This document shows, piece by piece, positions 33,136 to 38,184 of a stretch of 64,000 nt of DNA. Made by a program: the position numbers and the translations under genes. The stretch covers positions 17,569 through 81,568 of the forward strand of contig CAZEII010000012.1 in assembly GCA_964511835.1 (NCBI GenBank), given 5' to 3'. Numbering within the stretch: position 1 is the first letter of the stretch; the number at the start of each line of letters is the position of its first letter. Below the pieces are notes generated by a model that saw only the letters and a list, made by a program, of their open reading frames with translations, did not search any database and was not told the DNA's origin. The DNA comes from an uncultured Acidobacteriota bacterium. GTDB taxonomy: Bacteria; Acidobacteriota; Polarisedimenticolia; Polarisedimenticolales; DASRJG01.

Positions 33136-34077
33136 TCAAGCCTCACCGCTGCGCTCCACCGGATGCCCCGCGGCGGCCCAAGCATCGAGGCCTCCGGCGA
33201 GAGGCCGGACTCTCGTGAACCCCCTGGCGATGAGCAGGCGTGCCGCACGGGCCGCCGAGGCTTCGTTGGGTCACGTGCAATACAGGACGATCTCGCGCTC
33301 GAAGGAGACGCCCTCGAGCTCCGCGTCGAGCGGGTCCAGACTGAGGAGCCGCGAGCCCGGAATCGCCCGTCCGTCACGGAGACGTGCCGCCTCCGAGCGA
33401 ACGTCGAAGACTCCGGGCGGGTCGTCCGTCGCCAGTCGTGCTGCGAGCTCGTCGGGAGCGATCCTTCTCATCGCGAAGGCGCGCGTGAACCGTAGGCGCT
33501 CCCAGATGCGCCAGGCGACGTAGAGAACGAGCATGGCGAGCACGACCGTCGCCGCGCCCTTACCCATCGATTCCAGCACCGCGAGCGCGTCCTCGATCTG
33601 CCTCGACAGAAGGGCCCCCGCCAGCATCGCGCTCGCGGACCATAGAAGGGCGCCGATCGCGTCGAACAGGAGGAACGTCCGAACCCGCATGCCCGATGCC
33701 CCCGCCAGCGACGTCGAGACGGCGGACAGCCCCGGGACGAACTTCGCGATGAGGAGCGCGCGCGCGCCGAACCGCGTGAAGAGCGACTCCGTCTGCCTGA
33801 CGCACGCGTCGGGCGAGAGGGAGACCTTGCAAACGAGGCGAAGCGCCACGTCCCCATGCCGGCGTCCGACCGCAAACCAGATGGCGTCCGCGCCGACCGC
33901 CGCCAGCATGGCGACGAGCGCGGTGAGTCCCGCCGGCATCCCGCCGTCGCGGGCGACGGCGCCGGCGACGACGAGCGTCGGGACGGCCGGAATCGGCAGC
34001 CCCAGCTGGTCGACGAAGACGTTCAGGGCGACGAACGAAACCCCGTGGGCGGCGATGAGCTGGACCGGAGTGCGCAT
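33136..34077 (-). CDS. DedA/VTT-rhodanese fusion, putative selenoprotein (in-frame TGA at 33271-33273)
   Basis: DedA motifs (GLPIPA, AKFVPGLS, FLLFDAIGALLW). The rhodanese domain continues past TGA: IVLYCT*PNEASAARAARLLIARGFTRVRPLAGGLDAW; next stop at 33136-33138. Confidence 0.85.
33237..33256 (-). promoter_or_regulatory. Candidate bacterial SECIS hairpin
   Basis: mRNA GGCG-GCC[CGUGC]GGC-A-CGCC: 7 GC pairs and one bulge; loop 21 nt after UGA with G at loop position 2. Confidence 0.6.
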
Positions 34078-34157
34078 CTTTCTCCTCCCGCGAGTCGGGC
34101 GACGATTGTGTCACGGCATCCGGGAGAGTTTGGGGTAACCTCAAGCAGGGCACGAAC

Positions 34158-34463
34158 GTGACTTGGATCCGCGTCTTGGACGATCGAGAGCTTCCGGAAG
34201 GGAGCATGACGCCGGTGTATCCCCTCGGAATCCACCTTGTTCTCGCCCGTGTGGGCGGTGCCGTCTTTGCCGTAGCGGGGAAGTGCGCTCACATGGCGTG
34301 TCCCCTGTCCGGGGGGACCCTCGATGGCTACATCCTCAAGTGTGGCTGCCACGACTGGCGGTTCGATGTCAGGACGGGGCGGTTCGTCGACGCTCCGGAG
34401 CTGGGCATTGCGGTCTACCCGACCAAGTCCGAGTCGGGGAACCTCTACGTCGGCATGGGATGA
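34158..34463 (+). CDS. Rieske (2Fe-2S) ferredoxin
   Basis: CAH...CGCH ligand motifs, FDVRTG. Confidence 0.92.
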   Translation: MTWIRVLDDRELPEGSMTPVYPLGIHLVLARVGGAVFAVAGKCAHMACPLSGGTLDGYILKCGCHDWRFDVRTGRFVDAPELGIAVYPTKSESGNLYVGMG

Positions 34464-34475
34464 CTGGAGATCATC

Positions 34476-34721
34476 ATGAAGAAGGTATCGATGTACACGC
34501 TTTCCACCTGTCCTTGGTGCCGAAAGGCGAAGAATTACTTCAAAGAGCACAACGTCCCGTTCGAGTTCATCGACTACGACTTGGCCGACCAGGCCACGCA
34601 GGACCGGATCATGCGAGAGCTCGACAAAGAGGGAGTCAGCGGCTTTCCGTACGTGCGCATCGGAGAGACCGGCGTCGAGGGGTACCAGCCGGCACGTTAT
34701 GCCGAGCTCCTCGGCCTCTAG
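34476..34721 (+). CDS. Glutaredoxin/NrdH-like protein
   Basis: YTLSTCPWC, FIDYD, GFPYVRIG. Confidence 0.93.
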   Translation: MKKVSMYTLSTCPWCRKAKNYFKEHNVPFEFIDYDLADQATQDRIMRELDKEGVSGFPYVRIGETGVEGYQPARYAELLGL

Positions 34722-34730
34722 AGAAGAGCG

Positions 34731-35066
34731 ATGGACGCTGAATCGAGAAAACGGGCGCTGCGGCAGTTCTACGGGAAGGTCGTCAAGCCTCTGGGGTTCA
34801 AGTTCACTCCGGACTCCGATCTCTCCGAATTCCTCCTCGATCAAGAGGTCAAGCTCGAAGAGAAGCATGGTGTGCCGTTTTGTCCGTGCCGGCCCATCCG
34901 TCGGGACAGAGCCCGCGACATGCAGATCGTCTGCCCCAGCATCCCCTTTCACCGCGCGCACTTCGATGCCATGAAGCGATGCTGGTGCGGGCTTTTCGTC
35001 CACGAGGACGTCACCGACCCGGACAGCCTGCCGCAGGTGCCTGCGAAGGAGCTGGGCATTGAGTGA
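34731..35066 (+). CDS. Ferredoxin-thioredoxin reductase catalytic-subunit-like protein (atypical CPS motif)
   Basis: HGVPFCPCRP...VCPSIPF...RCWCGLFV. Confidence 0.85.
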   Translation: MDAESRKRALRQFYGKVVKPLGFKFTPDSDLSEFLLDQEVKLEEKHGVPFCPCRPIRRDRARDMQIVCPSIPFHRAHFDAMKRCWCGLFVHEDVTDPDSLPQVPAKELGIE

Positions 35067-35469
35067 CGAGTTCGTCCGCGGCATCCGCGCCGACGAGGTC
35101 GCTCCGGGAGGCATGAAGGCGATCGAGCTCAATGGCCGCGAGATCGTGGTGTGCAACGTCGACGGAACGTACTACGCGATCGATCGGCGCTGCGGACACA
35201 TGAGCGCGCCGCTCGAAAAGGGGACTCTGGACGGGACCATCGTCACGTGCGCCTTTCACAGCGCCCAGTTCGACGTCGCGACGGGCGAGGTGCTGGGACC
35301 TCCGGTCATGCCGTACGTGGACGAAGTGCCGCCGCCGCGGATCGCCGCGCTCCTGCAGACTTCGGGGGCGCTGATGCAGCACATCCGGACGGGTCCGATC
35401 GGTACGTACGAGGTCAAGGTCGACTCGGAGTGGGTGCTCGTGGCGCTCGAGCGGCGGAAAGATCGATGA
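35059..35469 (+). CDS. Rieske (2Fe-2S) ferredoxin with C-terminal insertion
   Basis: RRCGHM...TCAFH, FDVATG; TTG start overlaps the FTR stop. Confidence 0.88.
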   Translation: MSDEFVRGIRADEVAPGGMKAIELNGREIVVCNVDGTYYAIDRRCGHMSAPLEKGTLDGTIVTCAFHSAQFDVATGEVLGPPVMPYVDEVPPPRIAALLQTSGALMQHIRTGPIGTYEVKVDSEWVLVALERRKDR

Positions 35470-35591
35470 CGGAACCGTCTCGCTGGCTTGACGACGGCGA
35501 AGGGCGGTCCTAGACTCGATTCACCGCGCGAGGCATGTTGCCCGCGCGCTCGACCCGCCGGGCGCGATGGCCCTGGCGAGAGGAGGCTTCG

Positions 35592-37047: not shown

Positions 37048-38184
37048 ATGATGAACCAGCGGATTCTCATCCTCGGCGCCGGGTTCGCGGGGCTCGAGCT
37101 CTCGACCGCCTTGTCGGAGGCCTTCGGCGACGGCATCTCCGTCACGCTGATCGACAAGGCCGAGAGCTTCGTCTTCGGCTACGCGAAGCTGGACGTCATG
37201 TTCGGCCACAGGACGCTCGCCGATGTCGAGCTGCCCTATCGGTGCGTCGGCAAGCCGGGGGTGACGCTCAGGCGGGAGACGATCACGTCGATTGACCTGG
37301 CGTCACGCCGCGTCACGACCGACGCCGGCACGCACGAGGGCGACGTTCTCGTGATCGCTCTCGGCGCCGACTACGACGTCGCGAGCACGCCCGGCGTGGT
37401 GCTCGGCGAGAACGAGTTCTACTCGGTCCAGGGCGCGGCCCGCATGCGCGAGGCGCTGCCCGGCTTTCGCAAGGGGCACGCCGTCGTCGGAGTCTGTGGG
37501 GCGCCCTACAAATGCCCCCCCGCGCCGAGCGAGTGCGCGTTGATGCTCCACGATTATCTCGTCGGCCGCGGCGTGCGCGGGGACTGCACGATCACGCTCG
37601 TCAATCCGCTCCCGAGCCCCGTGCCGCCGTCCCCCGACACCTCGAAAGCGCTGATCGCGGCGTTCGCCGAGCGCGGGATCGAGTATCTCCCGAGCAAGCG
37701 GGTCGTTCGGGTGGATCGCGACCGCCGACTCGTCGTTCTCAATGAGGGGACCGAGATCCCCTGCGACCTGTTCCTCGGTGTGCCGAGGAACACGGCGCCC
37801 CCAGTGGTCGTGGCGACGGGAATGACGGAGGACGGGTGGGTGACGGTCGATCCGCACACGCTCGAGACGAAATACCCCGGCGTCTACGCCGTCGGCGATC
37901 TCGCCAACACGGGCGCGCCCAAAGCGGGGGTCTTCGCCGAGGGCACGGCGCGCACCGTCGCGGCGAATCTCATTGCGAAGCTGCGCGGGCAGGCGCAGAC
38001 GGCGAAGTATCCCGGCGCAGGATCTTGCTTCATCGAGTTCGGCGGCGGCCGCGTCGCGCGCGTCGACGTCGATTTCTTCTCGGGTCCCCGGCCGACCGGG
38101 AGCTACCACGAGCCGTCGGAGGCGCTGCGCGCCGACAAGCAGCAGTTCGGCGCCACGCGTCGCGCTCGGTGGTTCGGACGATAA
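37048..38184 (+). CDS. FAD-dependent oxidoreductase, sulfide:quinone oxidoreductase/FCSD-like
   Basis: LGAGFAG, YKCPPAPSE, VYAVGD, PKAGVFAE, SCFIEFG. Confidence 0.88.
   Translation: MMNQRILILGAGFAGLELSTALSEAFGDGISVTLIDKAESFVFGYAKLDVMFGHRTLADVELPYRCVGKPGVTLRRETITSIDLASRRVTTDAGTHEGDVLVIALGADYDVASTPGVVLGENEFYSVQGAARMREALPGFRKGHAVVGVCGAPYKCPPAPSECALMLHDYLVGRGVRGDCTITLVNPLPSPVPPSPDTSKALIAAFAERGIEYLPSKRVVRVDRDRRLVVLNEGTEIPCDLFLGVPRNTAPPVVVATGMTEDGWVTVDPHTLETKYPGVYAVGDLANTGAPKAGVFAEGTARTVAANLIAKLRGQAQTAKYPGAGSCFIEFGGGRVARVDVDFFSGPRPTGSYHEPSEALRADKQQFGATRRARWFGR

Follow-up and report, generated by a model that had tools for sequence, protein, structure and literature searches.

What do two Rieske proteins have to do with a glutaredoxin and with the catalytic subunit of a ferredoxin:thioredoxin reductase (FTR), and what might such a combination serve? 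This question is raised by four tightly packed, co-directional genes of an uncultured Acidobacteriota bacterium (assembly GCA_964511835.1), which lie in the 64,000-nucleotide stretch of contig CAZEII010000012.1 analyzed here in full (hereafter the window). An earlier note, made from the letters of the window, had placed these genes at 34158-35469, and their open reading frames (ORFs) sit exactly there, forming a cassette of about 1.3 kb that encodes four proteins of 81-136 aa:

34158-34463, + strand: Rieske1, 101 aa; Pfam PF00355 (Rieske), E 1.2e-18
34476-34721, + strand: glutaredoxin-like (Grx-like) redoxin, 81 aa; Pfam PF00462 (Glutaredoxin), E 3.9e-12; active site CPWC
34731-35066, + strand: protein resembling the FTR catalytic subunit (FTRc-like protein), 111 aa; Pfam PF02943 (FeThRed_B), E 8.5e-23
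35059-35469, + strand: Rieske2, 136 aa; Pfam PF00355 (Rieske), E 1.2e-17, and also Rieske_4

The genes are separated by 12 nt and 9 nt and then by an 8-nt overlap, in which the start of Rieske2 lies over the stop of the FTRc gene, and no promoter- or terminator-like sites were found within the four-gene unit. As the best overall explanation, which we consider probable, we propose that the four genes make up one operon and that this operon specifies a self-contained cytoplasmic thiol/disulfide oxidoreductase module of the FTR or ferredoxin:disulfide reductase (FDR) type, with the Rieske proteins as its one-electron partners.

The evidence that carries this proposal comes from conserved gene order. 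One genome per prokaryotic species was scanned, which yielded 119 relatives of FTRc, and 80 loci whose FTRc proteins are 60-88% identical to that of the window were kept for synteny, which was scored by tblastn with the window proteins. Wherever the contig allows, Rieske1, Grx and FTRc occur in the same order in 80/80 of these loci, an arrangement in other genomes that is far beyond chance. Rieske2 lies directly downstream of FTRc in nearly all bacterial loci, most commonly with the overlapping start seen in the window and otherwise with starts and stops that nearly abut. The exception is provided by the Methanosarcinales, in which two or three Rieske genes lie upstream and a nitroreductase-family gene, 21-30 nt downstream, replaces Rieske2. 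The earlier note had left it to a synteny search whether the Rieske genes are conserved with FTRc and Grx; they are, throughout the 80 loci, in both domains of life and in fused forms as well.

These fused forms emerged from an exhaustive HMMER search of 1.84 billion representative proteins. Two of them, P0142 (225 aa) and P0148 (221 aa), are FTRc::Rieske fusions of the CWC type, and both are directly preceded by a gene for an 81-82-aa Grx, with no further Rieske gene on the contig; hence the minimal system would seem to consist of Grx, FTRc and a single Rieske centre. Other fusions join Grx to FTRc (P0123, of the CWC type), FTRc to two successive Grx domains (P0196) and thioredoxin to FTRc (P0160 and P0173). 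Since the gene order is kept in all 80 loci and FTRc::Rieske fusions exist, a functional Rieske-FTRc-Grx unit is well founded. Three metagenome proteins (P0125, P0139 and P0145) were set aside as long FTRc fusions, being frameshifted read-throughs of adjacent cassette genes, and such entries could distort counts of domain architectures. In a seawater metagenome, one Grx and FTRc::Rieske pair is followed downstream by a large protein with many CxxCH-like motifs (L088:1164-2225), which by appearance resembles a multihaem cytochrome.

The same observations bear on another idea, namely that an aromatic-ring or other Rieske oxygenase system has the two Rieske proteins as its ordinary ferredoxins and that their position next to Grx and FTRc is accidental. 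The solved structures nearest to them are indeed those of dioxygenase ferredoxins such as TodB, BphF and CarAc; however, the operon and the 80 loci contain neither an oxygenase nor a ferredoxin reductase, the order is kept across phyla that include strict anaerobes and methanogens, and the FTRc::Rieske fusions exist, so that we regard this idea as almost certainly wrong.

The FTRc-like protein matches PF02943 with 80.9 bits (cut-off 22) and shows sequence matches to the structures 4TPU, 7PWE and 1DJ7, its three cysteine pairs coinciding with those of the Methanosarcina acetivorans FDR, the 7PWE protein and Synechocystis FTRc. An AlphaFold2 model built from 41 sequences (pLDDT 82.5, pTM 0.74) predicts that the protein adopts the FTRc fold: Foldseek relates the model with probability 1.00 to 7PWE, 4TPU, 7C2B, 2PU9 and 1DJ7 at TM scores of 0.54-0.64, the best matches being 7PWE (E 7.5e-05) and 4TPU (TM 0.64), followed by canonical FTRc, including FTRc complexed with thioredoxins. 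Alignment of the 80 homologues gives the family signature CPC-x14-CPC-x13-CWC, with an invariant tryptophan where FTR has a histidine. A profile scan of the 4.14-Mb genome, in which the Synechococcus and M. acetivorans controls were positive, revealed this as its one FTRc gene. The earlier note's remark that the Grx-FTR pair lacks a variable subunit holds for the entire genome, which contains no match to PF02941 (the Synechococcus control was again positive).

The window copy of this protein departs from its family at one position, as it reads CPC...CPS...CWC and retains five of the six family cysteines (four cluster ligands and the redox-active pair), all six of which are found in 79/80 sequences:

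34938-34940, + strand: codon AGC for Ser70 of the FTRc-like protein; Cys in 79/80 family members

Ser70 aligns with Cys76, one of the cluster ligands of Synechocystis FTRc. It reflects either a mutation of very recent date or a miscalled base; if the residue is real, the enzyme of this genome may be changed or weakened in function. One could therefore suppose that this copy of the cassette is crippled or changed, with Ser70 removing a [4Fe-4S] ligand and leaving the enzyme inactive or its cluster modified, or that the assembly or its base calls are in error at this point. The substitution is unique to this genome among the 80 homologues, a single T-to-A change suffices to turn TGC into AGC, and the cassette sits on a terminal branch of 0.24 substitutions per site, which is long beside the median of 0.081 and the 0.092 of its same-genus relative. 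On the other hand, all four reading frames are intact and Ser70 is the sole departure of the cassette at 91 near-invariant columns of the four proteins, which argues against a general decay; moreover, serine sometimes ligates Fe-S clusters. The long branch itself could reflect faster evolution or thin sampling. We thus consider a crippled or miscalled copy to be fairly improbable.

The two Rieske proteins are paralogues (36% identical) that belong to different types. Rieske1 carries the motif CAHMAC...CGCH, in which the CxH/CxxH ligands are joined by the extra cysteine pair of bc1/b6f/sulredoxin-type Rieske proteins, the cluster ligands being invariant in 92/92 family sequences and the extra pair being present in 86/92. 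In the high-potential proteins of the bc1/b6f type, this pair forms the loop disulfide. Its second motif is CGCHDWRF rather than CPCHGSxY, and it is thus without the serine and tyrosine hydrogen-bond donors of bc1-type proteins. Rieske2, with the motif CGH...CAFH and no cysteine pair, is ferredoxin-type, has an insertion or extension of about 30 aa, and keeps its cluster ligands in 66/66 family sequences. The nearest solved structures of Rieske1 are dioxygenase Rieske ferredoxins, and the PDB neighbours of Rieske2 are 5BOK, TodB, the NdoA ferredoxin and BphF; against NCBIfam equivalogs, the two proteins score 38-62 bits, with cut-offs of 113-150. The N-terminus of Rieske1 (MTWIRVLDD) has neither a twin-arginine nor a hydrophobic signal, and no signal peptide could be recognized from sequence in Rieske1 or Rieske2, whereas proteins of the bc1/b6f type are exported or membrane-anchored.

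The Grx-like redoxin matches the Pfam Glutaredoxin family with 46.6 bits (cut-off 22.9), and its CPWC active site is invariant in 78 sequences. All of its NCBIfam matches fall below the cut-offs (YruB 59.9 against 88.55, Grx3 37.9 against 90, NrdH 29.6 against 85.75). Its PDB neighbours are 7C10, 5CAX, 3NZN and 3IC4, of which 5CAX, labelled only 'Glutaredoxin' in the database, is presumably the M. acetivorans methanoredoxin. By these comparisons, it is probably nearest to the YruB/NrdH/methanoredoxin-like redoxins.

Taking these components together, we propose a mechanism in which the proteins would form a complex centred on the FTRc-like protein, whose [4Fe-4S] cluster, lying beside a redox-active cysteine pair, would interconvert one-electron and two-electron transfer. 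The dithiol/disulfide partner of this protein would be the CPWC Grx-like protein encoded just upstream, and its one-electron partners would be the two Rieske [2Fe-2S] proteins, which would replace the plant-type ferredoxin and variable subunit of FTR, or the ferredoxin and fused rubredoxin domain of FDR. Electrons would flow from the Rieske proteins through FTRc to the Grx-like protein and on to oxidised protein or small-molecule disulfides, and a small flavoprotein, or some other housekeeping donor, would re-reduce the Rieske proteins. Such a module might act as an accessory thiol-repair or oxidative-stress unit that moves between genomes by horizontal transfer. The direction from Rieske to Grx is favoured by analogy with FTR, FDR and the FDR-NrdH system of Methanosarcina barkeri.

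Comparison with these systems shows both what is familiar in the cassette and what is not. The best PDB sequence match of the FTRc-like protein is the M. acetivorans FDR (4TPU; E 7.7e-07, identity about 23-30%), which likewise has an FTRc-like domain with three cysteine pairs and a non-histidine last pair (CYC, against CWC in the cassette), lacks a variable subunit, and has a second one-electron metal centre accompanying the catalytic domain. However, that centre is a fused C-terminal rubredoxin and its electrons come from ferredoxin, whereas the cassette encodes a bare 111-aa domain and two separate Rieske proteins; the FTRc-like protein matches only residues 11-95 of the 173-aa 4TPU chain and contains no Pfam rubredoxin domain. 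In the Grx/FDR fusion of Desulfotalea psychrophila (7PWE), a Grx-like redoxin is paired with an FDR-type domain, as are the adjacent genes of the cassette and the two parts of the CWC-type Grx::FTRc fusion noted above, but it is a single polypeptide without a Rieske partner, while Grx and FTRc of the cassette are encoded by separate genes; a literature search found no published description of the 7PWE fusion. Together 7PWE and 4TPU bear out the earlier note's statement that Grx-FTR pairs are already known.

The cyanobacterial and chloroplast FTR (1DJ7, 2PVO, 7C2B) shares the Pfam family, the fold and the arrangement of ligand and redox-active cysteines. Unlike the cassette, it is a heterodimer with a variable subunit, has CHC with a catalytic histidine and a different spacing, and couples a plant-type ferredoxin donor to a classical thioredoxin substrate, where the cassette encodes Rieske proteins and a Grx-like protein. 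In M. barkeri, the FDR-NrdH system is reported to serve the class III ribonucleotide reductase (Wei et al. 2015, as cited in other papers). There, too, a small NrdH/Grx-like redoxin is encoded next to the FTR-like enzyme that reduces it, but the system is ferredoxin-dependent and linked to nrdD, and no nrdD gene was found near the cassette in the 80 loci. Finally, the oxygenase Rieske ferredoxins (TodB, BphF, CarAc) and sulredoxin resemble the cassette proteins in being small, soluble and of the CxH...CxxH type, with the extra cysteine pair of Rieske1 recurring in sulredoxin and in the bc1/b6f proteins; in contrast to the oxygenase ferredoxins, the cassette proteins are encoded with a disulfide reductase rather than with an oxygenase or reductase partner.

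Where might the electrons come from? All-against-all clustering of ORFs in the 80 loci and Pfam tallies of the nearest upstream and downstream genes revealed no universal partner gene; the flanks of the cassette differ from locus to locus and the module is autonomous. Nevertheless, certain neighbours recur. Nitroreductase-superfamily flavoproteins are found near the cassette in 22 loci, upstream in Actinomycetota and downstream in Methanosarcinales, and given that the archaeal and actinobacterial versions are only 29% identical, the two associations are probably independent. Genes for NADPH-dependent FMN-reductase-like proteins (FMN_red) occur in 4 loci, about 100 nt directly downstream in Ferrigenium (L004) and in a Nitrospirota genome (L047), and 1.4-3.5 kb away in L021 and L006. 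Two further kinds of neighbour suggest oxidative stress or iron: Dps, 50-1350 nt from the cassette in 6 loci of at least four phyla, and an Fe/Mn superoxide dismutase, which follows the cassette at about 100 nt in 16 Thermoleophilia loci (e.g. L043:5792-6391). Representative genes are:

L069:5351-5926, L043:3640-4149, L004:5835-6404, L047:5797-6384: small flavoprotein neighbours of the nitroreductase superfamily or FMN_red
L023:3702-4301, L022:181-675, L057:2838-3308, L042:7070-7621, L044:1324-1962: Dps genes

The small flavoproteins are candidate electron donors to the Rieske proteins, and together the recurrent neighbours offer a weak but consistent indication of flavin-based electron input combined with an oxidative-stress (or iron) theme. 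That the chain is NADPH-independent, as the earlier note supposed, is not established: in other genomes, the commonest neighbours are small flavoproteins of the NAD(P)H type.

In three genomes, those of Ca. Ferrigenium straubiae and of two Nitrospirota (L004:3731-4345, L047:3719-4342, L053:5758-6360), the cassette is also directly adjoined by the gene of a secreted SnoaL-like (ester-cyclase-like) protein, which is about 200 aa long and has no NCBIfam match.

Several points weigh against a module that reduces disulfides with electrons from Rieske proteins, and the earlier note's view that these proteins feed the chain is likewise not established. Rieske ferredoxins titrate near -150 mV, and Rieske proteins with the cysteine pair usually lie much higher, while FTR and thioredoxin-type disulfides lie near -230 to -320 mV; with such potentials, the reduction of a disulfide by a Rieske protein would be uphill unless the proteins are unusual. 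The electron donor is neither encoded in the operon nor conserved beside the cassette in the 80 loci, and the neighbour associations partly reflect shared descent, the superoxide dismutase being confined to one lineage. Neither direction of electron flow accounts for two distinct Rieske proteins, and the fused forms manage with one Rieske domain; further, the fused domain is somewhat closer to the Rieske1 profile (79 bits, against 46-58 bits with that of Rieske2), and either free protein could dock on FTRc. In this genome, one cluster-ligand cysteine is also missing from FTRc.

Some of these points could be turned into a case for the opposite direction, in which the Grx-like protein would be oxidised by the FTRc-type enzyme and the electrons would leave singly via the Rieske proteins, so that the module would be a thiol:Rieske oxidoreductase acting as a redox valve or sensor, with the two Rieske proteins, possibly differing in potential, as sequential or split acceptors. 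The general difference in potential between Rieske proteins and FTR fits this direction, as do the cysteine pair, typical of higher-potential Rieske proteins, in most Rieske1 sequences (86/92), the lack of a low-potential donor encoded nearby, and the conservation of two distinct Rieske paralogues. However, every characterised relative (FTR, FDR and the FDR-NrdH system of M. barkeri) acts as a reductase, the carriers are for the most part anaerobes poor in high-potential acceptors, the surroundings of the cassette show no conserved acceptor enzyme, and Rieske1 lacks the hydrogen-bond donors of the bc1-type proteins. We therefore view the oxidative direction as unlikely but as a serious contender.

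The distribution of the cassette is wide and patchy. Across the 80 loci, carriers belong to at least 15 phyla in both domains. Bacterial carriers are found in Acidobacteriota, Chloroflexota, Beta- and Gammaproteobacteria, Myxococcota, Spirochaetota, Planctomycetota (Brocadiia), Bacteroidota, Eisenbacteria, Actinomycetota (Thermoleophilia), Nitrospirota, Omnitrophota and Thermodesulfobacteriota, and archaeal carriers in Bathyarchaeia, Promethearchaeota and Methanosarcinales. Among 61 relatives of the genome studied here, just two have the cassette, with one carrier among nine congeners and none in the rest of the family, order and class sample. A tree of concatenated Rieske1, Grx and FTRc sequences falls into two well-supported halves, and its mixed groupings are on starred branches: Bathyarchaeia and a Promethearchaeote cluster with Nitrospirota, one Eisenbacterium and one Steroidobacteraceae genome lie inside Acidobacteriota, a Bacteroidales genome groups with Brocadiia, and the four Pseudomonadota appear in four separate places. 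As the tree mixes both phyla and domains, the cassette appears to spread horizontally. In the window, the 2-kb interval holding the cassette has a G+C content of 65.0%, against 68.7-69.4% on either side. No plasmid copy was found by tblastn in 72,556 plasmids, and a clean empty insertion site could not be demonstrated in congeners, in which the flanking genes are scattered over different contigs.

Could the operon instead serve its immediate neighbour? Divergent from the cassette, across a short intergenic region, lies a candidate selenoprotein gene:

33136-34077, - strand: DedA/VTT-rhodanese ORF, candidate selenoprotein, with an in-frame TGA at 33271-33273
34078-34157: divergent intergenic region of 80 nt, from the DedA-rhodanese start to the Rieske1 start

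The TGA lies within LYCT-TGA-PNEASAA, and the frame runs for 44 more codons to the stop at 33136. The earlier note had suggested that the operon might recycle this selenocysteine (Sec) rhodanese. In favour of a dedicated recycling system, the two units are divergent, with the DedA-rhodanese start (34077) only 80 nt from that of Rieske1 on the opposite strand, and the 13-kb surroundings are rich in thiol and sulfur genes, including a MerA-like class I disulfide reductase, a type III sulfide:quinone reductase (SQR)-like flavoprotein and a Spy-like/HtrA pair. The comparative evidence points the other way: a DedA-rhodanese homologue occurs within 5 kb of the cassette in 0/80 loci, the other carrier in the genus lacks the adjacency, in congeners these genes lie dispersed over different contigs, and the cassette is present in methanogens, Omnitrophota and other lineages with unrelated neighbours. 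The suggestion is thus not supported, and we consider a dedicated role in recycling the Sec rhodanese very unlikely; the juxtaposition is a peculiarity of the thiol and sulfur gene neighbourhood of this genome.

None of these thiol- and sulfur-related neighbours resembles a Rieske reductase. The SQR-like flavoprotein (378 aa, at 37048-38184, 1.6 kb downstream of the cassette) was considered for that role and rejected, as it is type III SQR-like and not a ferredoxin reductase; the NCBIfam model that it matches best, the selenoprotein subtype of type III SQR, gives 193 bits where the cut-off is 525. Three other Acidobacteriota (L018, L031 and G001) likewise have a homologue of it within 5-7 kb of their cassettes.

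The 80-nt divergent region presumably holds the operon promoter. No sigma-70-like or sigma-54 site was scored in it, and it has no similarity to the upstream regions of other cassette loci; a promoter-like site is found after the cassette, at 35488-35516, before the Spy-like gene. Control by sigma-54, an idea suggested by enhancer-binding proteins near some loci, was discarded: a good TGGCAC-N5-TTGC site occurs in 2/80 loci and none is present in the window.

A more distinctive upstream element was found in the Thermoleophilia, where a conserved, G+C-rich hairpin of 67 nt (e.g. L043:4312-4378) precedes the cassette, following a plausible promoter and lying 40-110 nt before the Rieske1 start. 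The loci with this hairpin are:

L043, L048, L049, L055, L059-L061, L066-L068, L071-L074 and L094-L103: Thermoleophilia leader hairpin

Of the 121 genomes of the class searched with a covariance model, 12 contain the hairpin, each exactly once, and every copy is directly upstream of a cassette. Across 22 distinct sequences, 98% of the cells pair, where slid controls reach 41-47%, and compensatory changes occur at three pairs; no Rfam family matches the hairpin, even at E up to 10. We suggest that it is a candidate for a dedicated cis-regulatory RNA, either a riboswitch or a protein-bound leader, and the Thermoleophilia operon seems to be under the control of a structured leader RNA of its own. 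A hairpin of this type is absent from the cassette of the window.

How far does the cassette extend what is known of thiol reduction? Known thioredoxin and glutaredoxin reductases draw on NADPH, on F420, on ferredoxin via flavin, or on ferredoxin via a [4Fe-4S] cluster, and a review of archaeal thiol systems, which distinguishes the thioredoxin-reductase types NTR, DFTR, FFTR and FTR/FDR, leaves Rieske proteins unmentioned (PMC7278568). No published paper joining FTR/FDR with Rieske proteins was found in the literature searched, though an earlier mention in work on FTR phylogeny (Planta 2013) is possible. The novelty thus lies in the electron partner, which for a disulfide reductase of the FTR/FDR type would belong to a new class, the FTR/FDR kind itself being known. 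It is conceivable, with a likelihood that we would put a little short of even, that the FTR family has in the cassette a third mode of electron input, in addition to free ferredoxin and fused rubredoxin. Dedicated and obligate Rieske partners and a private Grx-like redoxin would then constitute a new class of thioredoxin-reductase-like system that has spread horizontally through anaerobic and soil bacteria and archaea. The two conserved Rieske paralogues, of which one has a bc1-like cysteine pair, could operate at different potentials, with the enzyme splitting or merging the two electrons of a dithiol between them.

For the genome studied here, these results correct the idea that the operon serves the neighbouring selenoprotein and flag a cluster ligand that is possibly defective or miscalled. 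More generally, the cassette occurs in many uncultured microbes of soil, peat and sediment, including methanogens, and its small size makes it accessible to heterologous expression. If the proposal is true, the mismatch between Rieske and disulfide potentials poses a thermodynamic puzzle whose answer could reveal new cluster chemistry, and the Rieske-partnered version of the enzyme would add a new electron route to or from protein thiols.

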